Part shown: positions 48,847 to 62,826 of the stretch, piece by piece
Numbering within the stretch: position 1 is the first letter of the stretch
How the letters are laid out: each line of letters starts with the position of its first letter
Assembly (NCBI GenBank): GCA_035291905.1
Contig: DATDRF010000297.1
Location: 14-64,013, forward strand
Length of the DNA: 64,000 nt
Reading direction: 5' to 3'
DNA from: Bacteroidota bacterium
GTDB taxonomy: Bacteria; Bacteroidota; Ignavibacteria; UBA10030
Notes under the pieces: model-generated
Databases searched by the model: none
Seen by the model: only the letters and a program-made list of their open reading frames with translations
Told to the model about the DNA's origin: nothing
Position numbers and translations under genes: made by a program

Positions 48847-48867
48847 GAAAACTCCATCGGTTATGAG

Positions 48868-49035
48868 GATCAGAAGCCAGAGATCAGAGATCAGAAGTCA
48901 CTGATCAGAGGTCAGATGTCAGAGATCAGAGGTCAGAGGTCAGAGATCAGAGGTCAGATGTCAGAGATCAGAGATCAGAGGTCAAAGGCCAAATCAAAAA
49001 ATCAATAAATCAATGAATCATTAAATCAGAAATCC
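48868..49035. repeat. Heptanucleotide tandem repeat array, (A/G)TCAGAG x about 17, degenerating into (A)AATCA(N) units
   Basis: Strict 7-bp periodicity is readable directly: atcagag|atcagaa|gtcactg|atcagag|gtcagat|gtcagag|... The array is noncoding and fills the space between the hydrolase start (48846) and the stop of the upstream gene (49038). Confidence 0.9.
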
Positions 49036-53221: not shown

Positions 53222-53782
53222 TCATTTCTGGAGCGTTCGAAGATGGTTCACGACGAGCCATCGTTCATGGGACTTCAGGGCCTCGGAATATGAAGGCATG
53301 ATCAAACGGCCATGGCGGACCACATAGTAAATATATCCGTCGGGAACGCGACGATATTTTTGGCTTGTCAGATCCGGCGGAACCTGAAACTTGGCGGCGA
53401 CAAGTCCATCTCCTCTTGCTCCCAGGCCGTGACACGGAGAGCAGTAGGTTTCAAAGAGAAACTTGGCAGAATCGGCATTCAAAGCAGTGAGCCGGACGGG
53501 ATTCACAAGCCGTGTTGCGGAAACAGAGTCGCGTATCGGCAGTTCGTAGCCGCTCACCGGAACGGTCCCCGCAACCGGTGGCATCGGGTCTTCCTGCTTT
53601 TTGAATGAGGGCTGCATGTGCATGTCGCTGCGGTAGCGGTAGCCCCCGATTTCGCCATTGTCTGGCCCACACGACCACAGCAGCGGCAACAGAAAAAGCG
53701 ATCCCAGCAAAGCACATAGATTTCGTGCAGGGGAGCGGAGGTGCAAAGGAGCAGAGGAGATATGCAATCTGGTTGAACTCAT
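53222..53782 (-). CDS. actE: Monoheme cytochrome c (ActE-like)
   Basis: Single CxxCH (CSPCHG). Signal or lipoprotein N-terminus. Position between actD and actF. Confidence 0.6.
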   Translation of the reverse strand: MSSTRLHISSAPLHLRSPARNLCALLGSLFLLPLLWSCGPDNGEIGGYRYRSDMHMQPSFKKQEDPMPPVAGTVPVSGYELPIRDSVSATRLVNPVRLTALNADSAKFLFETYCSPCHGLGARGDGLVAAKFQVPPDLTSQKYRRVPDGYIYYVVRHGRLIMPSYSEALKSHERWLVVNHLRTLQK

Positions 53783-54177
53783 ATCCTATGATCTCTGAGT
53801 AGCAGCCACGGTTCGGGGCGAATAATCATCATCACGATTTTCCCAAGGATCTGATTGTACTTCTTTTTTTGTGCGACATGTCTTTCTGCGTCGAGGTACC
53901 CACAACGAGCAGCAAAATCAAGCCATGTCTGAGTTTCTGCTGCTTCAGTTTCAGCATCATTGAGTTTGCTCAAGAAGGCAGCTTCATATCGACGTTTTCT
54001 CCAAGCCTCTGTCAGATTTGCACATACCGACCTCGAGGATCGGCGGATCTGGTCTGTCAACGAATACGTTTCCTCTTTCGGAAAACGCCTTGTCATTTCA
54101 AAGATCTCCATTGCAGCCTCAAAGGCAATCTGATAAACTTCGAGCTGCTCATGGCTTTGAATATGTTTCCTTTCCAT
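53779..54177 (-). CDS. Four-helix-bundle protein (TIGR02436 / '23S rRNA intervening sequence protein' family) inserted in the ACIII operon
   Basis: Family signature QIRRSSRSVCANLTEAWRKR, with about 130 aa of helical protein. The leader it shares with the second copy is described in the findings. Confidence 0.8.
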   Translation of the reverse strand: MERKHIQSHEQLEVYQIAFEAAMEIFEMTRRFPKEETYSLTDQIRRSSRSVCANLTEAWRKRRYEAAFLSKLNDAETEAAETQTWLDFAARCGYLDAERHVAQKKKYNQILGKIVMMIIRPEPWLLLRDHRI

Positions 54178-54217
54178 TTTGTCCCCCCAAAAGTTAAGTT
54201 TTCTTTCCCCCTTCTCC

Positions 54218-54754
54218 TCAGCGCCTCTGCTCCTCTTCTCTGGAGTCCTCCTTGATCTCCACCGCTCCCACCCTTTTCATCTTCTTTCCCCAATCCTTCA
54301 ATATTTCCTCGCTTCCAAAAACCTGAATCCCATAATGATCGCTCGAGAGACGCTCGTCATATGCGGCTGCCAGACGCAACCGAGGAAGCCGTGCATTGAT
54401 GAGAAAGCCGATCATCGTTGCGATGGAGCCGAAGAGAATGGTGAGAATGTAGGCGATAACGCCGAACGGCGGAATGGAGATTAACGGCTTCCCGCCGACG
54501 ATCAAAGGATAGTTCAGCACGGAGCCGATTGTCAGTGCCCAGCCGGTGCAGAATCCGAGTATCGCGCCGGTCAACGTGAACACTCTCACGGGGCTCTTTG
54601 GCCGATGGAGAGCATACTCGATGTCGTGGTGAGGGACTGGAGCGTACACGAGGAAATTCTCGAACTTTGCTCCTTTAAGCTCGCTGATTCCCTTTAAAAG
54701 AAGATCCATCGCTGGAAAGACAGCAAGGATATTTGGGCCGGTGTGCTTGGACAT
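54218..54754 (-). CDS. actD: Alternative complex III subunit ActD-like (DUF3341)
   Basis: N-terminal soluble region plus two TM helices. Position after actC. Confidence 0.65.
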   Translation of the reverse strand: MSKHTGPNILAVFPAMDLLLKGISELKGAKFENFLVYAPVPHHDIEYALHRPKSPVRVFTLTGAILGFCTGWALTIGSVLNYPLIVGGKPLISIPPFGVIAYILTILFGSIATMIGFLINARLPRLRLAAAYDERLSSDHYGIQVFGSEEILKDWGKKMKRVGAVEIKEDSREEEQRR

Positions 54755-54764
54755 TTGGAGAACC

Positions 54765-54822
54765 GAGAAGCTAGAAGTTAGAATTTAGAATCAAGAATAC
54801 AGAATCCAGAAGTCAGAAACCA
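54765..54822. repeat. 7-bp periodic repeat NNNAGAA x7 in the actC-actD intergenic region
   Basis: gctagaa|gttagaa|tttagaa|tcaagaa|tacagaa|tccagaa|gtcagaa. Confidence 0.85.
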
Positions 54823-54859
54823 ATACCCCCCGATGCACCGTTGCGCCGTCGCCCCGATG

Positions 54860-56179
54860 CTATCCCTTCCCGCTCTTCGGCGGCTCAAGTTGCTCCTTCA
54901 CTTCCCACATTGAGACGACGGGAAGCGTTTTCGAAAAGATCGCGAACAAGAAAAAGAACCATGAGAAACTTCCAACCACAATCCCCATTTCCGAGAACGT
55001 CAACTCCGGAAGTCCCCACATGAAGGGGATGTACTCGTGAGCAAGAGACGTTGTGATAATGACGAATCGCTCAAAGAACATTCCGATGGTCACTGCAACC
55101 GAAACGAATACCAGGAGCGGAATGCTTCGGCGAAATCGCTTTACCCAGAACAGCTGCGGGATGACGAGGTTGCAGACGAACAGTGACCAGAATGCCCACC
55201 AGTAATCGCCGAACGCTCGATACGACATGATTGCCTGCTCCCACGGGTTGTGGCTGTACCAGGCGACAAAGACCTCAATCAGGTAGGCAAACCCGACGAT
55301 ACTTGCGGTAAACAACAAGAACTTTGCAAGGCTTTCCAGATGATGATCGGTGATATAGGCCTGCAGCCGGAACGCATTGCGCATCGGTATGAGAAGAAGG
55401 ATGACCATAGCGAGGCCGGAATGAATAGCTCCGGCGACAAAATACGGCGCAAAGATCGTGCTGTGCCATCCGGGCACAAGGCTCATGGCGAAATCCCACG
55501 AAACAATGCTATGAACCGAAATGACCAGCGGCGTTGCAAGGGCAGCCAGAAACACATATGCCGCGGTATAATGACGCCATTGGTTATCAGTACCCTGCCA
55601 TCCTTGGGCGATAAAACCGTAGAGTTTTTTTCTCCAGCCTCGTGCTTTGTCGCGAATGATTGCCACGTCGGGTACCATCCCTGTAAGAAAGAAAATTGAA
55701 CTTGCCGTCAAGTAGGTCGAGATGGCGAAGACGTCCCAAATGAGGGGGGACCGGAAATTCGGGAACAGATCACCCATTTGCGGATAGGGGAGGGTCCAAT
55801 AGAAAACCCAGACGCGGCCGAGATGAATAAGAGGGAAGAGGCCGGCGGTGGCGAGGCCAAACACCGTTACGGCTTCCGCGCTGCGATACACCGACGAACG
55901 CCATTTCACGCGGAAAAGAAACAGAATTGCCGAAATCAGTGTCCCGGAGTGTGCAATACCGACCCAGAAGACAAAGGTTGTAATATAGAGATACCATCCG
56001 ACGGGATTATTCTTCCCCGCCACTCCGATGCCGGTCATGATCTGATGCAGCCACGAGCCCGCCCCCCATGCAACTCCCAATCCCAGGACCCCCACGAGCA
56101 CGTAATACCACTTCTTGGGCCTGTTCAGCGTCTGGGTCAGATCGAGATCTGTTTTGGTATATGACAGTTCGTAAGGCAT
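54860..56179 (-). CDS. actC: Alternative complex III subunit ActC (NrfD-family quinol-interacting membrane subunit)
   Basis: NrfD/PsrC-like 10-TM protein (MPYELSYTKTDLDLTQTLN...). Confidence 0.75.
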   Translation of the reverse strand: MPYELSYTKTDLDLTQTLNRPKKWYYVLVGVLGLGVAWGAGSWLHQIMTGIGVAGKNNPVGWYLYITTFVFWVGIAHSGTLISAILFLFRVKWRSSVYRSAEAVTVFGLATAGLFPLIHLGRVWVFYWTLPYPQMGDLFPNFRSPLIWDVFAISTYLTASSIFFLTGMVPDVAIIRDKARGWRKKLYGFIAQGWQGTDNQWRHYTAAYVFLAALATPLVISVHSIVSWDFAMSLVPGWHSTIFAPYFVAGAIHSGLAMVILLLIPMRNAFRLQAYITDHHLESLAKFLLFTASIVGFAYLIEVFVAWYSHNPWEQAIMSYRAFGDYWWAFWSLFVCNLVIPQLFWVKRFRRSIPLLVFVSVAVTIGMFFERFVIITTSLAHEYIPFMWGLPELTFSEMGIVVGSFSWFFFLFAIFSKTLPVVSMWEVKEQLEPPKSGKG

Positions 56180-56185
56180 GGTCGT

Positions 56186-57910
56186 TCAGGGTTTTCTGAG
56201 CGGGGTTACGTCCTGATGCTTCTCGGCCGGCTTATCGTGCAGCTCGGCGCCAATGAGATGACGTGCCCGTGTGAGGGCCTCATCAATGCTGCCGCAGACA
56301 TTCTCTTCGCCGATGCGATCGATCAACCCGGATGAATTCAACAAATAGAGCGGCTGTTTGTGAATTCCGGAGATCACAAGGACAGTCCCTTCTTTCCTTG
56401 TTCGCTCGTAAAGGTCTTCCAGCGCCTGAAGCCCCGAGGCATCGACGGCGAGAAGATTTCTTGTCCGAAGGATAAGGACTTTTGCCGGCTTTTCAATCAA
56501 CCGCAGCGAATCCTTGAATTGATCCACGGCCGCATAGAAAAGCGAGCCGTAAATCTCAAAAACCTCGACTCCATCAGGAACGACACGTTTGGCAATTGCA
56601 TTTGCATCATCTTTGTCTTCTTCAACCTCTTCTATGTCCTTTGTGATCAATTGTGTTTGTGTCACACCCGCCATCTGGCGCAGGAAGAGGAAAGCGGCGA
56701 GGACCACACCGACCTCGATTGCGATGGTAAGGTCAACCAACAGTGTCAGAAGGAACGTTGTCAAGAGGATGGCGATATCGCTTCGTGGACCGTGGAAAGT
56801 CTTGACGAACGCGTGCCACTCGCTCATGTTGTACGCGACGATAATGAGAATGGCTGCAAGGGTCGTCATGGGGATATACTCTGCCCATGACCCGAAAAAC
56901 ACCATCAGGAGAATAATGGTCAATGAATGCACGAGCCCGGCAACGGGCGTTCGTCCCCCGTTCTTGATGTTCGTGGCTGTGCGTGCGATTGCTCCGGTGG
57001 CTGGAATTCCCCCAAAAAGCGACGAGAGGATATTCCCCACGCCCTGGGCTACGAGCTCCATGTTCGAGCGGTGGCGCGTTCCGAGCATACCGTCGGCAAC
57101 AACCGCCGAGAGAAGCGATTCAATACCCGCCAGCAGGGCAATGGTGACAGCAGGTGCAAACATGGTCTTGATTAGCTCCCAGTCGGCCTCCGGAAGCGAA
57201 GGTGACGGAAGAGAGTTGGGAACGCTGCCAAACCGGCTGCCGATCGTTGCAACAGGAATCTGAAAAACCTGTACAGCCACAGTCGCAAGAATGATGGCCA
57301 CGAGGGGGGCGGGTATCTTGTGCGTAATTCGCGGCCATAGCAGAAGAATCAGAAGAGAACCCAAACCCGTGGCGACCGTGGGAAGATGAGTTGTCAGAAT
57401 ACTTTCTCCGTAGCTGATCCATTTTTCTACAAAATCCGCGGAGAGCGATGTAATGTCGAGACCAAGAAAATCCTTCACCTGCGACGAAAGGATGATCAGC
57501 GCAATCCCGCTCGTAAAACCGACCGTCACAGGGTAGGGGATGAGGCGCAGCAGCACGCCCATGCGCGCAATTCCCATCGCAACCAGCAAAACCCCGGCGA
57601 TCAACGTCGCGATGACAAGCCCCTGATACCCGTACTGTTGGACAACGCTGTAGATAACGACGATGAACGCGCCGGTCGGTCCGGAGATCTGCACTCGGCT
57701 CCCGCCGAGTACGGCAACAGCGATTCCCGCAATGATTGCCGTGTAGAGCCCCTGCTCCGGCTTCACTCCGGATGCTATGGCAAACGCGATGGCCAGCGGC
57801 AGGGCGACGATTCCCACAATGACGCCCGCAACAGCGTCACGCGAGAATTGCTTGGCTGAATACCCCTCCTTGAGCAGGCTTACAAACTTCGGTTCGAGCC
57901 TTGACGGCAT
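56186..57910 (-). CDS. SulP family anion (sulfate) permease with C-terminal STAS domain
   Basis: SulP TM core with a C-terminal STAS domain. Tightly packed between actC and the DUF72 gene. Confidence 0.9.
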   Translation of the reverse strand: MPSRLEPKFVSLLKEGYSAKQFSRDAVAGVIVGIVALPLAIAFAIASGVKPEQGLYTAIIAGIAVAVLGGSRVQISGPTGAFIVVIYSVVQQYGYQGLVIATLIAGVLLVAMGIARMGVLLRLIPYPVTVGFTSGIALIILSSQVKDFLGLDITSLSADFVEKWISYGESILTTHLPTVATGLGSLLILLLWPRITHKIPAPLVAIILATVAVQVFQIPVATIGSRFGSVPNSLPSPSLPEADWELIKTMFAPAVTIALLAGIESLLSAVVADGMLGTRHRSNMELVAQGVGNILSSLFGGIPATGAIARTATNIKNGGRTPVAGLVHSLTIILLMVFFGSWAEYIPMTTLAAILIIVAYNMSEWHAFVKTFHGPRSDIAILLTTFLLTLLVDLTIAIEVGVVLAAFLFLRQMAGVTQTQLITKDIEEVEEDKDDANAIAKRVVPDGVEVFEIYGSLFYAAVDQFKDSLRLIEKPAKVLILRTRNLLAVDASGLQALEDLYERTRKEGTVLVISGIHKQPLYLLNSSGLIDRIGEENVCGSIDEALTRARHLIGAELHDKPAEKHQDVTPLRKP

Positions 57911-57913
57911 TCG

Positions 57914-58834
57914 TTATTCCCTGATATTATCCAACCGACGGATGGTTAACGGTAACTCGTCTTCCTGTCCAACAATCGACAGGTTCGGAATCTTCTTCAG
58001 CTGCGGGGAGACTTCTGCAAGACTGCCCGGAACCGTGATCTTCTTCTTCCTGTCGACTAAGTGTTTTAGCTGAAATCCGTTTACCGCCGAATGTGCATTC
58101 GGATCGTTGTGAAAGACAACGAAGGTCTTCCTCACTGAGCGTTGCACGGATTCAATCCGTTTGACAAAATCTTCAAGCTCTTCCGGTGAATAATTGTAAT
58201 GATACCGCTCCTGGACTCCGCCCCTGTCCCACGAGGCGCTGTTTCTCCCCATCAGCCGGAAGTACGCCACGTCATCCCATGCCTCGTTCGTCATCGGCAT
58301 ATGGTTCTTGATTGCGGGAAGATCGACATTGATCAGGTGAAGGTTCTGATCCCGCAGGAACTGAAACGCCTCCGCATGGTTCCATGAATCGTGCCGCAGC
58401 TCGATGAACATGACGAATGATCCAAATGTTACACCGAGTTTCTTCAGGTACTCTTCGTTTGGCTTTGTGCGCTGGAAGGAATGAGGGAACTGAAGAACCA
58501 GTCCTCCCATCACTCCTGCCTTGAGCAGCGGTTCAAGCATGGCGTGAACCGTTTTTGCATCTTCGGCCGTCCCGTTTCTCTTGTGCGTAAAAGCCTGAAA
58601 GAGCTTCGCCGTGAAAACGAAATTCTGGTTGCCCGAAACGTCCGCTATCCAACGGCGGATCTGATCCGGGCTCAAAGCCAGCGTGTAGAACGTGGCGTTG
58701 ACCTCCACCATGTCAAAGAACCGGCTGTAGTACTGGAGCTTCCGGAATCCTTTTCCTGCGTCGGCAGGATAGAACGTTCCCTCAAACGAGGGCAGCATCC
58801 AACCTCCCATCCCGATCAAAATTTCCGGCTTCAT
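57914..58834 (-). CDS. DUF72 (UPF0759) family protein
   Basis: IGMGGW...FYP...LQYYSRFFDMVEVNATFY pattern typical of DUF72. Confidence 0.75.
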   Translation of the reverse strand: MKPEILIGMGGWMLPSFEGTFYPADAGKGFRKLQYYSRFFDMVEVNATFYTLALSPDQIRRWIADVSGNQNFVFTAKLFQAFTHKRNGTAEDAKTVHAMLEPLLKAGVMGGLVLQFPHSFQRTKPNEEYLKKLGVTFGSFVMFIELRHDSWNHAEAFQFLRDQNLHLINVDLPAIKNHMPMTNEAWDDVAYFRLMGRNSASWDRGGVQERYHYNYSPEELEDFVKRIESVQRSVRKTFVVFHNDPNAHSAVNGFQLKHLVDRKKKITVPGSLAEVSPQLKKIPNLSIVGQEDELPLTIRRLDNIRE

Positions 58835-58840
58835 ACGATC

Positions 58841-61783
58841 CTAGGATCGAATCTCTTTGAGGTACACAACCGCGGGCTGTGTATTCAGTTCCTCCAGCAC
58901 GCGATATCCACGAACCTTTTGGGCGTCGCGGATCCTGTTAACCTGACTCTGAGGATCTTTTAAGTCGCCGAAGACGATTGCCTGTGCAGGGCATGACTGC
59001 TGGCATGCAGTCGTGATCTCTCCGTCGCGAACCGGCCTTCCTTCAGCTTTGGCATTCGCCTTTGCCTCGACAACACGTTGAACGCAGAAGGTGCATTTCT
59101 CCATCACACCTTTCGTTCGAACAGTTACGTCCGGGTTCAATTGCCAATTCAGCGGTTCTGGAAATTCGTAGTCGAACCAGTTGAACCTGCGAACCTTGTA
59201 TGGACAGTTGTTGGCGCAATATCTCGTCCCGATGCATCGATTGTAGACCTGAGCGTTCAAACCCTCGGGGGAGTGGTACGATGCGTAGACGGGGCAGACA
59301 GGTTCACAAGGGGCGTTATCACATTGCTGACACATCATCGGAAGGAATTCTGCCTTGGGTGAATACGGTTCCGACGGATTAGAGGGGGGATCATCGAAGT
59401 ACCTCTCGACGCGGATCCAGGTAAGCTCACGCCCGATTTCCACCTGATGTTTTCCGACAACAGGGACGTTGTTCTCCGCATAGCACGCAGTCACGCATGC
59501 GCTGCATCCCGTACACTTGTCGAGATCGATTGCCATTCCCCAACGATGGTCCGGATGCTCGTGCGCCGGATAGAGGGAAGGAGATTCTTTTTCCTCATTC
59601 TCTTTGCCGGCAAGCTCCCTTGTTTGCCGAAGCAGCTCCTCGACGGTGACAACCTGAACGATGTTTCTTCCATGGAGATAATCGCTTCCGGCCACATCGG
59701 CAAGAGGAACACTCGCATCCCGTTTGACGATTCGAACCTGTGCACCCGACCATTTCAAGGACCCCGAGCGCCCTGCAGGCAGGGAATGCAGCAAGCTGAT
59801 GACGTTTGCTCCCTGGCCTTTTGCGTATCGGCCGTATTCGGTGTGGCCCTGTCCGATGGGAACAGCCACCGCACCTGGTCGAACACCGTGATAGACATAC
59901 ACGGGGAGTTCAATGACACCATGCTCACTTGTGAGCTGTACGATGTCCCCGCGCTTTACATTGAGCTTTTCCGCATCACTGGGATGAATCTCCACCCAGT
60001 TCTCCCAGGTTATCTGAGTCATCGGATCGGGCAGTTCCTGGAGCCACGGTCTGTTCGCTCCGCGACCATCATAAAGAGCGAGTGAGGGGTAGGTAATGAG
60101 TGAGAAATCACCGGCCGGAGGTTGTGGCAAAGAGAACGAGAACGATCGCGTCACGGCACGGATCGGCGAAGATGCCTTTCGACCGGCATCAAAAACTCCT
60201 CCGTTTGCCAGTGCCTCTGTCCACCAGAGGTCGAAGTCCTTACCTCCTCCGGATTGACGGTGAACCGCACGCCATCTCGTTTTGAGATACTCATAAAAGG
60301 GCTGACGAGCGGAGGAGAAGAGGGCCTTCTTCAAGATCTTCTCCTTGAGGCCGACGACGATATCCCCGAACATGCGTGTTGTCGGAAACACCGGCTGCAT
60401 GACCGGTTGCATAAGTCCCCGCCCATGATCTCCCCAGCTCTCAAGCGGCGTATGAACGGGGAGAACCATCGTGGCCTGCGTTGTCGTCTCATCCATGTAA
60501 CTTGAGAATGCAACCGACAGCGGCACCTTGCTCATTGCATGCAGAACGTTCAATCCGGGAGGGGCGGAGAAGACAGGATTCACGTCGGTAAAGAAGAGGG
60601 CGTTGATTTCGCCCTGTTCTATTGAAAGAATAAAGCGGGCGAAGTCGGCATAGGAATTTGTGTCGGACAGTTGTTCGAGGGAGTCGAAAAGAACCGTCTT
60701 ACCGATATTTCCGAGCGAGTAGTTCAGCAGATTCACTGCAAGACAGGTCTGAAGCTCCCCGTCACCGCCAACGGGAGTCCCACCGGCGACGATGAGGCTT
60801 GGTCTTGAGGCAAGCAATGATTCGGCGAGATCTTCTAACACCTCTTGCCGGACGCCGGTGACTTCAGAAACCCTTGCCGGAGAGTATCCACGGGTTGACG
60901 GCAAGAGTTCCGCGGCTTCGGACCGCGGGATGGAAGCATTTCCGCTTTCGAGAACAAGATTGAGGATACCAAGTGCGAGGACGTACTCCGTTCCGGGCAC
61001 CGGGGCAATCCACTGGTCGGTGTTGGCCGCCGTCATTGAGAGTCGGGGGCCGACATAGACGGACCGTCGAACGGACTTGCCGTTGAACGCACGCGCTGTT
61101 GTGTACTCTCGTGTCTGTTTCAGTGGGGAAAGCCAGGTCTCGAGGAAATCGGCTCCGAACGAGACGATCATCTTCGCTGCGGCAAAATCATGAGAGGGGA
61201 TAACGGGCCGTCCGAATATCTGCCGATTTGCCTCTTTCACAGCATCGTACGAAAACGGCTCATACTTCAATCGCCGCCTTGAACCGACGGCCGCGAGTAA
61301 CTCACCCACGAGGGCATCAGCTGATCCGTTCATCGACCCGGTCAGCCAGGCGATGCTGTTGCCTTTTCCACTCTTTGCCAGTTTCTTGATCTCTGCAACG
61401 ATTGTCTCTTCGGCCTGCTGCCATGAAACCTGCTCCCACGAACCGTCAGGTCGTTTGCGAAGAGGGTGTTGAATCCGATCCGGATTGTAGAGACCGTGCA
61501 GGGATGCCTGACCTCGTGCACAGAGGGTTCCCTCGTTGACGGGATGAAGCGGGTTCCCTTCAACCTTGACGGCCCTTCCTTCTCTCACGCGTACGCGGAT
61601 TCCGCAGCCCGCGGGACATTCGCGGCATACGCTTGCGTACCACACTGCCTTTCCCGGAATGATCTCTTCATGGGGAATGACGTACGGTATCAACGATTGC
61701 GGCTTCTTCGGGGTGCATCCCGGAAGTGCCGTCGCAACGCTTGCGCCGATGATTTTGAGGAAATCTCTACGTTGGAGGTCCAT
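58841..61783 (-). CDS. actB: Alternative complex III subunit ActB (molybdopterin-oxidoreductase-like domain fused to a 4Fe-4S ferredoxin domain; Tat signal)
   Basis: Tat motif RRDFLK. MopB-like N-terminal 700 aa. C-terminal Cys clusters (CTGCSACVTAC, CQQCDNAPCEPVCPV, CIGTRYCANNCP, CTFC). 980 aa. Confidence 0.85.
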   Translation of the reverse strand: MDLQRRDFLKIIGASVATALPGCTPKKPQSLIPYVIPHEEIIPGKAVWYASVCRECPAGCGIRVRVREGRAVKVEGNPLHPVNEGTLCARGQASLHGLYNPDRIQHPLRKRPDGSWEQVSWQQAEETIVAEIKKLAKSGKGNSIAWLTGSMNGSADALVGELLAAVGSRRRLKYEPFSYDAVKEANRQIFGRPVIPSHDFAAAKMIVSFGADFLETWLSPLKQTREYTTARAFNGKSVRRSVYVGPRLSMTAANTDQWIAPVPGTEYVLALGILNLVLESGNASIPRSEAAELLPSTRGYSPARVSEVTGVRQEVLEDLAESLLASRPSLIVAGGTPVGGDGELQTCLAVNLLNYSLGNIGKTVLFDSLEQLSDTNSYADFARFILSIEQGEINALFFTDVNPVFSAPPGLNVLHAMSKVPLSVAFSSYMDETTTQATMVLPVHTPLESWGDHGRGLMQPVMQPVFPTTRMFGDIVVGLKEKILKKALFSSARQPFYEYLKTRWRAVHRQSGGGKDFDLWWTEALANGGVFDAGRKASSPIRAVTRSFSFSLPQPPAGDFSLITYPSLALYDGRGANRPWLQELPDPMTQITWENWVEIHPSDAEKLNVKRGDIVQLTSEHGVIELPVYVYHGVRPGAVAVPIGQGHTEYGRYAKGQGANVISLLHSLPAGRSGSLKWSGAQVRIVKRDASVPLADVAGSDYLHGRNIVQVVTVEELLRQTRELAGKENEEKESPSLYPAHEHPDHRWGMAIDLDKCTGCSACVTACYAENNVPVVGKHQVEIGRELTWIRVERYFDDPPSNPSEPYSPKAEFLPMMCQQCDNAPCEPVCPVYASYHSPEGLNAQVYNRCIGTRYCANNCPYKVRRFNWFDYEFPEPLNWQLNPDVTVRTKGVMEKCTFCVQRVVEAKANAKAEGRPVRDGEITTACQQSCPAQAIVFGDLKDPQSQVNRIRDAQKVRGYRVLEELNTQPAVVYLKEIRS

Positions 61784-61827
61784 GAAAAACAGTTGTCGGT
61801 GATCAGTTATCAGTAAACAGTTGAAGC

Positions 61828-62343
61828 TCAGCGTTTCTTCGCGGACTTCAGAATTGACTCAATTTGCTTCAAATGGTTCACGTCGTGGCCGGCGTAAAGT
61901 TCGGTCATGCGCGTAACGGTTTCTTTACCGCGTTCAACATGCATGCCAAAGCATTCCCACTGCTCCTTCGTCAACGATTTCAGAAAAGCCACATTGTTTT
62001 CGCGGAGCGTCGTGAAAAGATCAAGTGCGAGCTTTGCGTTTTTGCGAAGGTATCCTGCATTTTGCTGCCAAATATTCTGGTCGTATGCCTGAATAGGTGT
62101 GCCGTTCGCACCAACGACGAGCCTGAGCCGATAAGCCATGACAATCTCACCTTCGGCCAAATGAGCAAGGATTTGCACAATGGACCATTTTCCGGAATCC
62201 TCCACCTTGGAGAGGGCAGAGGGCGGTTTTCCTTTTATCAGCCGTGCAATGGTCTTTGGCGTGGATTCAAGGACTTTCAGGTGGTTCTGGCCCTGGACGT
62301 AAGAGGTGATGCGGGCGCTGTACTGTTGCGGAGTTTCTTCCAC
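61828..62343 (-). CDS. DinB_2 / YfiT-like four-helix-bundle metalloprotein family member
   Basis: 171 aa. His-containing helices (ILAHLAEGE, YAGHDVNHL) typical of the DinB_2 superfamily. Inserted between actA and actB. Confidence 0.5.
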   Translation of the reverse strand: MEETPQQYSARITSYVQGQNHLKVLESTPKTIARLIKGKPPSALSKVEDSGKWSIVQILAHLAEGEIVMAYRLRLVVGANGTPIQAYDQNIWQQNAGYLRKNAKLALDLFTTLRENNVAFLKSLTKEQWECFGMHVERGKETVTRMTELYAGHDVNHLKQIESILKSAKKR

Positions 62344-62360
62344 CGGTCACCTTGGTTAAG

Positions 62361-62409
62361 GAGTTAGGAGCTAGCTAGAACCTAGAATCTAGAATTTAGA
62401 ATCTAGAAT
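62361..62409. repeat. 7-bp periodic repeat (CTAGAAT-type, about 7 units) at the 3' end of the second four-helix-bundle gene
   Basis: gttagga|gctagct|agaacct|agaatct|agaattt|agaatct|agaatgg. Confidence 0.85.
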
Positions 62410-62769
62410 GGCTCGAGAGTAAGAACGCAATAGTTTGCTTACTTCCGTGAGAGAGTCCATGAGAGCTGATGGATCTCCGTATTTTAGGTCGCGACTGAGT
62501 ATCAAATAATAGAGAGATTCATCGCTTGAACCCTCGCTGATATTCATGTATCGAACCTTATCAGCAGGGCCGCGTTTTCGAAATCCCTCAGCAATGTTGG
62601 CAGCGATTGAAACTGCCGCCCGCCGAAGCTGCGAACTGAGGCCGAACATTTCGTGCTTCGGGAAGCTCTTCGTGTACTTATAGACCCCTAGAACAAAGCT
62701 ATGAGCCTTCTGCCAAACGATGAGATCCTCAAACCTCTGTGCGGGACTCCTTTTCATTTTTCCCCCCAA
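62389..62769 (-). CDS. Four-helix-bundle protein (TIGR02436 family), second copy, inserted between actA and the dinB-like gene
   Basis: Family motif QLRRAAVSIAANIAEGFRKR. Leader CTTTTGGGGGGA-AAAATG is shared with the copy at 53779..54177. Confidence 0.8.
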   Translation of the reverse strand: MGGKMKRSPAQRFEDLIVWQKAHSFVLGVYKYTKSFPKHEMFGLSSQLRRAAVSIAANIAEGFRKRGPADKVRYMNISEGSSDESLYYLILSRDLKYGDPSALMDSLTEVSKLLRSYSRAILDSKF

Positions 62770-62785
62770 AAGATAGTTTGTTGAA

Positions 62786-62826
62786 AGAATTCTAGCTACT
62801 AGTTTCTAACTCCTCTGTTCTGCTTC
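62786..62826. repeat. 7-bp periodic TTCTNNN repeat, an inverted counterpart of the 62361..62409 repeat, flanking the other side of the four-helix-bundle gene
   Basis: gaattct|agctact|agtttct|aactcct|ctgttct|gcttcta. The reverse complement contains GAGTTAGAA...CTAGTAGCTAGAA, resembling the left-flank GAGTTAGGAGCTAGCTAGAA. Confidence 0.7.

Follow-up and report, generated by a model that had tools for sequence, protein, structure and literature searches.

Short tandem-repeat arms frame resident four-helix-bundle gene cassettes in an alternative complex III operon

Why do two small genes of one protein family sit in the same alternative complex III operon, each next to short tandem repeats? The question is raised by a 64,000-nt stretch of a Bacteroidota genome (Ignavibacteria, UBA10030; GenBank assembly GCA_035291905.1, contig DATDRF010000297.1, positions 14 to 64,013), referred to below as the window. 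The two genes, 4HB-1 and 4HB-2, encode four-helix-bundle (4HB) proteins of the TIGR02436/PF05635 family, and a sequence-only reading had taken them for one small insertion-prone cassette with terminal repeats that landed twice. The analysis gives good support to a different answer. Each gene is the resident copy of a widespread cassette that combines an open reading frame (ORF) of ~120–130 aa, a short leader and two complementary arms. It is likewise well supported that the arms, ~30 nt each, are built of tandem 7- or 8-nt units, G/purine-rich at the 5' side and pyrimidine-rich at the 3' side, and that the cassette fills one intercistronic gap.

Every gene of the region lies on the minus strand, and so do the features described below. 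Contigs that share 4HB-2 (at least 23 metagenome contigs carry identical copies) together with Pfam scans give the gene order ccoN-ccoO-[4HB-3]-cytochrome c-actA-[4HB-2]-dinB-actB-DUF72-sulP-actC-actD-[4HB-1]-actE-actF-P-type ATPase. A third cassette, 4HB-3, is thus placed just past the right window end, between ccoO and the cytochrome c gene. 4HB-1 (53779..54177, 132 aa) lies between actD and actE, and 4HB-2 (62389..62757, 122 aa) between actA and dinB. The true start of 4HB-2 is the ATG at 62757; the TTG start that had extended this ORF to 62389..62769 is replaced. Membership in the family, proposed from the letters alone, is confirmed by scores far above the curated cut-offs of 33.8 bits (PF05635) and 24 bits (TIGR02436): 104.7 and 96.8 bits for 4HB-1, 115.6 and 110.4 bits for 4HB-2. 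The identity of the two proteins, first put at about 25%, is 27% in a global alignment and 32% over 96 aa by BLASTP. PDB entry 2gsc (XCC0516, 5 chains) is matched at E=1.2e-10 by 4HB-1 and 1.6e-14 by 4HB-2, and entry 2rld at E=3e-08 and 8.6e-06, respectively. Judged by these matches, both proteins are homologous to solved homopentameric four-helix-bundle structures. The family is very large, with at least 7961 proteins at E<=1e-20.

The arms of the two cassettes are of different types. The purine-rich 5' arm of 4HB-1 occupies 54213..54240 and has period 8 (Tandem Repeats Finder, TRF, 54214-54240). The pyrimidine-rich 3' arm occupies 53733..53760, inside the actE signal-peptide coding region. 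Together they form an inverted repeat of 28 nt with 79% complementarity, and the arm-arm pairing is present in both the minimum free energy (MFE) and the centroid RNA folds. The 4HB-1 stop codon (53779-53782) overlaps the annotated actE start in ATGA. The 5' arm (54218-54240) also codes for the C-terminal tail and stop codon of ActD, and the 3' arm for the n-region of the ActE lipoprotein signal peptide. Both peptides are wholly different in a gene-less allele, L006; arm sequence is therefore translated within host proteins.

In the 4HB-2 cassette the purine-rich 5' arm (62786..62826; NNNNNAG on the sense strand, TNCTNNN on the plus strand) directly follows the actA stop. The pyrimidine-rich 3' arm (62359..62409) consists of five TTCTAGN units and CTCCTAA units, codes for the last 7 codons and the stop of 4HB-2, and ends ~10 nt before the dinB start. 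TRF finds in it 5 copies of period 7 with 89% matches (62375-62409). The arms align as inverted repeats in three registers: 62377-62409 with 62789-62821 (33 nt, 73%), 62373-62396 with 62788-62811 (24 nt, 83%) and 62359-62374 with 62799-62814 (16 nt, 88%). Again the pairing is seen in MFE and centroid folds. The sequence-only reading had described this gene as bracketed by imperfect inverted repeats with a strict 7-bp period, and had placed both genes between such repeats. The inverted 7-nt arms of 4HB-2 are real, but 'strict' is too strong, as the 62786-62826 arm is only loosely periodic and falls under the TRF threshold; for 4HB-1 the description fails, its purine-rich arm having period 8. 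That reading did not include these 8-nt arms, nor the third cassette or the family-wide rule described below.

The two genes also share a leader with a run of six G (G6 leader), and the near-identity noted earlier holds up. The motif CTTTTGGGGGGA occurs exactly twice in the 64 kb, each time about 5–7 nt before the ATG of 4HB-1 or 4HB-2, and the common form is CTTTTGGGGGGA(C)AAAATG. With one mismatch allowed there are 3 matches against 0.43 expected, and no shuffle reached 3. In 4HB-1 the leader spans 54178..54198 and ends at the ATG, with the motif CTTTTGGGGGGACAAA at 54182-54193. In 4HB-2 it spans 62758..62785 and precedes the ATG, with CTTTTGGGGGGAAAA at 62761-62772. All three cassettes carry the G6 leader; that of 4HB-3 reads AACTTTGGGGGGAATATG and stands behind a 5' arm made of a run of 8-nt NNNCGGNG units. 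The 4HB-1 ortholog in L087 keeps it (TATTGGGGGGATAAAATG) at a synonymous divergence (dS) of ~1 although its arms have drifted, and it is still present in a truncated 4HB-2 remnant of L093. A Shine-Dalgarno-like motif precedes 15 of the 43 window genes, compared with a background of 18%, and the act and cco genes of the operon have no such 4-mer upstream. Its position near the ATG, its conservation at dS ~1, its retention in L093 and the lack of such a motif at the act and cco genes make a Shine-Dalgarno-like site the best reading of the G6 motif. As a feature of the whole family the leader was rejected: it is found at none of 85 loci of other lineages and at 1 of 67 relatives of 4HB-2. It is specific to the present lineage.

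The arms, by contrast with the leader, recur throughout the family. For relatives of 4HB-1, one genome per species was scanned, giving 80 loci with <=67% identity to 4HB-1, of which 78 were used for array density. They span Chloroflexota, Acidobacteriota, Cyanobacteria, Bacteroidota, Planctomycetota, Verrucomicrobiota, Ignavibacteriota, Omnitrophota and other phyla. Just upstream of the ORF most of them carry a short purine-rich tandem repeat, and just downstream its complement. Arrays of period 5–10 occur at 5.3/kb within 150 nt of the gene and 0.30/kb farther away, and 71 of the 78 have one close by. For relatives of 4HB-2, 80 metagenome loci taken as an independent set (78 used) give 6.1/kb near the gene, 0.25/kb farther away and a nearby array in 76 of 78. 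Over both sets the enrichment beside the gene is 18–24-fold. Complementarity is specific to arms of the same cassette: an inverted-repeat alignment score of at least 30 is reached by cognate arms in 47 of 77 cassettes versus 3.9% of mismatched pairs, and the mean duplex energy is -54.5 kcal/mol for cognate and -36.3 kcal/mol for mismatched arms. In 52 cassettes the median length is 32 nt for the arm and 444 nt for the loop enclosed; ~22 nt separate the 5' arm from the ATG, and ~16 nt separate the stop from the 3' arm. Of 74 loci, 54 have the G-rich arm upstream and 1 has the reverse order. This polarity was considered as a sign of a role in the transcript and rejected, because the inverted-repeat arrangement is symmetric under reverse complement and the same polarity is expected for terminal repeats at the DNA level. 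Many genomes with 4HB cassettes (L010, L025, L029, L036, L044, L051 and others) also contain complementary array pairs 40–130 nt apart that form gene-less hairpins, such as AAAGGGGA / TTTCCCCT (L029, 4642-4762), often built of the same unit as the nearby cassette arms.

Period and unit differ between the two gene lineages. Among 4HB-2 relatives, period 7 is found in 160 of 177 arrays, identical 4-mers stand 7 nt apart 540 times compared with 15–52 times at the other periods from 3 to 13, and the unit is (G/T)NCAGRA upstream and TYCTGNN downstream. Among 4HB-1 relatives, period 8 comes first and then 7, and the unit is G-rich. CAGRA upstream and/or TYCTG downstream at 7-nt spacing is present in 53 of 68 relatives of 4HB-2 versus 1 of 75 relatives of 4HB-1. 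The distinction holds within one genome, where the arms of 4HB-2 are of the 7-nt AGAA/TTCT type and those of 4HB-1 and 4HB-3 of the 8-nt G-rich type. On these comparisons arm period and unit follow the gene lineage. Lineage and host are not fully separated, because the unit of 4HB-1 relatives also varies with host taxon, with CAGTNNN in Flavobacteriia, for instance, and GGTGACAA in Planctomycetota and Chloroflexota.

Some of these arms are already known as intergenic arrays. In a cultured organism, Xanthomonas campestris, the homolog of XCC0516 (the protein of 2gsc) lies between accB and accC with CGGGAAT x4.4 upstream and CCCATTC x4.3 downstream, and the first codons of the XCC0516-type ORF are coded by array. 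These arms are the published GGGAATC arrays, which PMC4692102 describes as G-quadruplex formers; it counts 186 of them in X. campestris and 70 convergent pairs, with 70–75 inverted pairs in Xanthomonas, and also describes GGGGA(C/T)T heptamer arrays in Nostoc. In PMC4679880, arrays of TAACTGA from Beggiatoaceae, Cyanobacteria and Bacteroidetes are placed immediately before start codons, and an unknown binding factor is proposed. As judged by a term search and selected sections of these two papers, neither mentions four-helix-bundle genes. The searchable literature, which leaves most subscription journals outside its reach, yielded no description of an association between TIGR02436/PF05635 genes and arrays, and relative to it the link appears new. 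At the Xanthomonas locus (L177:4358-4827), ~1.5 kb downstream of the cassette, there is also a 97-nt tandem repeat of 4.9 copies with 90% matches, apparently unrelated to the heptamer arrays.

Orthologous loci show how long the cassettes have been in place. L087 holds an ortholog of 4HB-1 in the same actD/actE slot, with 92% aa identity, dS 0.98 and dN/dS 0.037. Further relatives were picked by ActD identity (L093/L094, 80%; L095, 76%; L096, 69%). L096 has an intact 4HB-2 with dinB in the same slot (67% aa identity, pN 0.25, pS 0.92), without the G6 leader; at L096:811 it reads ATT where the window has ATG, which may reflect a non-canonical start or silencing. Its actC, actD and actE overlap tightly and have no arrays. 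In L093/L094, 4HB-3 is kept, 4HB-2 is reduced to a 42-codon remnant with both arms, and nothing but a plain spacer of 42 nt separates actD from actE. In L095 a 4HB fragment follows dinB instead of preceding it, and its arms differ: the truncated ORF of 76 aa lies in L095:660-1060, with GGTGGAAGGTGGGAGGAGTGAGGTGATAGG upstream and ACCTATTACCTGTCACCTATAACCTACGACCTATCACC downstream. Between 4HB-2 orthologs both arms have changed together, from CTAG-type on both sides here to TTAA-type on both sides in L096 and L093 (AAGAATTAAGAATA vs TATTCTTAATTCTTA). A comparison of cognate and swapped arm pairing among the three orthologs is not clean, as the L093 and L096 arms are related, and only the qualitative co-change is used. 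4HB-1 and 4HB-2 are thus read as old, vertically inherited residents under strong purifying selection, occasionally truncated or lost. Because of this selection (dN/dS 0.037; pN 0.25 versus pS 0.92) we infer that the encoded protein is functional.

At shorter range, the cassette slots vary between contigs that are otherwise 97–100% identical. L006 has no 4HB-1 in its slot; the purine-rich arm in the ActD tail and the pyrimidine-rich arm in the ActE signal-peptide region are kept, ~63 nt apart, with the actE ATG in the interval. These arms are ~75% identical to those of the gene-bearing allele and the flanks 98–100%; L001 and L006 diverge only in this slot and in the actC-actD spacer. As to a simple deletion, the 42-nt loop of L006 has no significant similarity to either end of 4HB-1 (p ~0.2). 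L002 carries a different 4HB-3 allele with 62% rather than 67% aa identity to 4HB-1, visibly divergent nucleotides and another 3' arm. Between the two alleles (L002:3700-4290 and L001:8200-8770) the 5' flank is identical through the ATG; beyond it the alleles become similar again only where the cytochrome c gene starts. The distal 5' arm assorts independently, L003 combining an L002-type distal arm with an L001-type gene, so that the 4HB-3 slot reads as a recombination mosaic. Arrays also slip between strains, the differences being a single 7-nt unit, 4 nt or 6 nt; the last two are indels in the 3' arm of 4HB-2.

These results divide the original proposal. The gap-filling unit with inverted repeats stands, and presence/absence in L006 and allele swap in L002 agree with an insertion-prone cassette. 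An empty site, of the kind that the sequence-only reading had suggested looking for, does occur in the act locus of L006, and the plain 42-nt spacer of L093/L094 likewise holds no gene. The double landing of one element does not stand: 4HB-1 and 4HB-2 belong to different lineages (27–32% identity) with different arm types, and same-slot orthologs at large divergence make them old residents instead of two recent insertions.

Gene-less arrays of the same kinds occur elsewhere in the window. At a sliding-window periodicity of >=0.75 there are 82 windows at period 7 versus 0–5 at periods 5, 6, 8 and 9, and the first 48 kb hold no TRF or periodicity array of comparable strength. A TTCTNNN heptamer array in the actC-actD spacer, noticed earlier, is confirmed by TRF with period 7 (54765..54822; TRF 54772-54822). 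Its end is 5 nt short of the actD ATG, its sequence is like that of the 4HB-2 3' arm (20/23), and strain L002 has a one-unit (7-nt) indel in it. The adjoining purine-rich segment (54830..54854) is not complementary to it and is identical at 23 of 25 positions to the proximal 5' arm of 4HB-3 (score 40, shuffle mean 13.3, 0 of 1000 shuffles as good). The spacer, of which the heptamer array makes up half, is by these likenesses chimeric and gene-less. An ACTGNNN / TAACTGA-type array lies in the dinB-actB gap just before the actB ATG (61787..61822; TRF 61790-61822, period 7); its sequence, TTACTGATAACTGATCACCGACAACTG, belongs to the TAACTGA type of PMC4679880. A TCTGAYC array of 17.6 copies (48865..48988; TRF period 7) lies upstream of an S15 peptidase gene; it gives the periodicity-scan maximum of 0.89, has a 21-nt super-period and is followed by 4.8 copies of the 8-nt AAATCAAT (48991-49028). 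The pair of arrays at 48865-49028 sits between a 247-aa ORF without a Pfam match and the peptidase gene, and no complementary partner array is found near it. All three solo arrays are pyrimidine-rich on the sense strand, as 3' arms are, and end 5–30 nt before the start codons of actD, actB and the peptidase gene. The window arrays have the properties that PMC4692102 and PMC4679880 give for dispersed heptamer arrays: tandem 7-nt units with 2–3 variable positions, an intergenic location, an end that often lies a few nt ahead of a start codon, frequent convergent pairing and a copy number that varies from strain to strain. Here, unlike there, arrays make up both arms of a gene cassette, and their type goes with the gene between them.

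What, then, do the arms do? The closest known design is the S23p-type intervening sequence of 23S rRNA, described in Leptospira and Coxiella burnetii with sizes of 428–760 nt (PMC4990558). The Coxiella element has 428 nt, a 28-bp stem, excision by RNase III and a decaying ORF (PMC4990558). The resemblance to rRNA intervening sequences, remarked on early, is borne out in architecture and size: an ORF of the same family, terminal inverted repeats that form a stem (~28 bp in S23p), and a cassette of ~500 nt with arms of 28 nt (79%) and 24–33 nt (73–83%). Sporadic distribution suggesting horizontal transfer, and the possibility of ORF truncation or decay, are shared as well. The differences are clear. 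The S23p element sits in helix 45 of 23S rRNA, whereas the cassettes here are flanked by actD/actE and actA/dinB in a protein-coding operon, outside any 23S rRNA gene, and no Rfam family, rRNA included, is matched in the window. Their arms are tandem 7-/8-nt repeats whose unit follows the gene lineage. Their ORFs are under strong purifying selection, whereas that of Coxiella is decaying. Excision by RNase III has been proven in the case of the rRNA elements; for the window cassettes we infer it.

Because the folds close both cassettes and the S23p likeness is close, RNase III-type processing is our leading model. As the joint best explanation we tentatively propose a resident cassette in an mRNA operon that is co-transcribed, forms an arm-arm stem and is processed in this way, and we place its likelihood somewhat short of even. 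With no room for a promoter of its own, the cassette would be transcribed together with the operon. On the transcript the arms would pair into a 25–30-bp stem closing a ~440-nt loop that contains the ORF. By analogy with the rRNA intervening sequences, the double-stranded stem would be a substrate for RNase III, and its cleavage would free the cassette mRNA and part the flanking cistrons. In the present lineage the G6 leader would drive translation of the ORF as a Shine-Dalgarno-like site. The arms would evolve by repeat slippage, and cassettes would be lost, truncated or exchanged through recombination in or beside the arms.

Several observations weigh against this proposal. Whole-cassette fold z-scores are modest, -2.3 and -1.6 for the two window cassettes. 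Among stem mismatches G:U and A:C are equally frequent (47:48 and 18:18), which is not expected under selection for an RNA helix on the sense strand; with no G:U excess, the stem test is not usable as support for an RNA model. Within a gene lineage the unit is conserved; RNase III has no need of that, so something sequence-specific also acts. The gene-less L006 slot retains both arms, which are therefore not carried by the gene alone, and many gene-less arm pairs and solo arrays exist. Co-orientation of neighbours by a crude ORF call (82% upstream, 76% downstream) is near the bacterial background and uninformative. The equal mismatches, the lineage-conserved unit and the arms that persist without a gene keep two rivals alive.

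The first takes the cassette as a mobile element at the DNA level, its arms being terminal inverted repeats or single-stranded DNA hairpins on which a recombinase or transposase encoded at another place would act. On this view, arm pairs lacking a gene would be derivatives resembling MITEs (miniature inverted-repeat transposable elements) or REPINs, and the RNA stem a by-product. We consider this possible but unlikely. Cassettes do end in inverted repeats as transposon- and MITE-like elements do, equal G:U and A:C mismatches and lineage-specific conserved units agree with it, and presence/absence and allele swaps at 97–100% identical loci have their breakpoints at arms or leader. Protein identity of ~70% across phyla, recurrence of the same arm sequences in different slots of one operon, and gene-less complementary pairs in other genomes, including the inverted pairs that PMC4692102 reports for Xanthomonas, point the same way. 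Against it, no transposase or integrase lies within the 16-kb neighbourhood, the operon has no near-identical copies (paralogs are 27–65% identical and their arms differ), and the same slot is held over dS ~1 or more. The arm boundaries are fuzzy; target-site duplications were not identified, though no systematic search was made. The empty-site loop, as described, has no detectable homology to the gene ends. A related comparison is with REP/REPIN and RAYT, where a gene is likewise flanked by inverted repeat copies and the repeat is also dispersed between genes as hairpin doublets and singlets. RAYT proteins are Y1 transposases that have catalytic motifs, and one RAYT belongs to one conserved REP family. 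The present family differs in being a small helical bundle with many paralogs and tandem-array arms that differ between cassettes.

The second rival makes the arrays binding sites of the four-helix-bundle protein, a pentamer reading 7-/8-nt units on RNA or single-stranded DNA in the manner of TRAP with its triplet repeats. Bound to the arms of its own cassette and to solo arrays before start codons, the protein would regulate translation or stability of the neighbouring cistrons. This, too, we rate as rather unlikely. Period and unit track the gene lineage even within one genome (7 nt for 4HB-2, 8 nt for 4HB-1 and 4HB-3), the protein is under strong purifying selection, and the solo arrays before the actD, actB and peptidase ATGs are placed as PMC4679880 describes for TAACTGA arrays. 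An arm of ~32 nt holds 4–5 units and solved homologs crystallised with 5 chains, but this arithmetic of one pentamer per arm is only a numerical coincidence. Among 4HB-1 relatives arm type varies with host taxon, which confounds lineage and host, and complementary arms would pair with each other and mask a single-strand site. In a broader and equally doubtful form, TIGR02436 proteins would be the missing partner of 7–8-nt intergenic arrays (STRR, GGGAATC, TAACTGA), the oligomer of each lineage recognising its own unit in a self-propagating system. If so, the basic unit would be a gene between inverted arrays; gene-less pairs and solo arrays would be dispersed binding sites or footprints, acting on translation or RNA processing of the host operon.

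It is very improbable that the arrays are ordinary low-complexity, slippage-prone spacers or degenerate terminators lying beside the genes by chance. Arrays without a 4HB neighbour (48865-48988, 54765-54822, 61787-61822 and others in other genomes) would fit this idea. The sequence-only reading had itself named ordinary repeats unassociated with the genes as an outcome to consider; the enrichment in two independent sets and the specificity of cognate arms contradict it, as do the array-poor first 48 kb of the window and the lack of T-runs after the arms. The proteins share a superfamily with bAvd, a pentameric, basic four-helix bundle that binds nucleic acid. A role as Avd-type accessory proteins of a diversity-generating retroelement is scarcely credible, since the weak matches to PF22296 (bAvd, 29.6 bits) and NF033474 (31.6 and 21.1 bits) stay under the curated cut-offs of 40 and 80 bits and no reverse transcriptase, template or variable repeats lie among the neighbouring genes.

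The locus and ~150 related loci join a protein family to intergenic arrays. PF05635/TIGR02436 has solved structures and no function known beyond that of the distant relative Avd, and heptamer and octamer arrays have been catalogued for decades without a mechanism or partner protein. XCC0516, whose structure is solved, has on either side arrays that have been studied for G-quadruplex formation, and Xanthomonas is a tractable organism. The processing model would take the intervening-sequence idea beyond rRNA into mRNA operons. Guest cassettes have been tolerated for long evolutionary spans by operons that are essential (alternative complex III, cbb3 oxidase, acetyl-CoA carboxylase).

The alternative complex III operon (54860-62343) has other, unrelated guests. 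dinB occupies the actA/actB gap, and DUF72 and the SulP/STAS transporter gene the actB/actC gap. The actB-actC junction is empty in L095, lacks sulP in L093, and in L096 holds HhH-GPD, DUF3052, sulP and two unknown ORFs.

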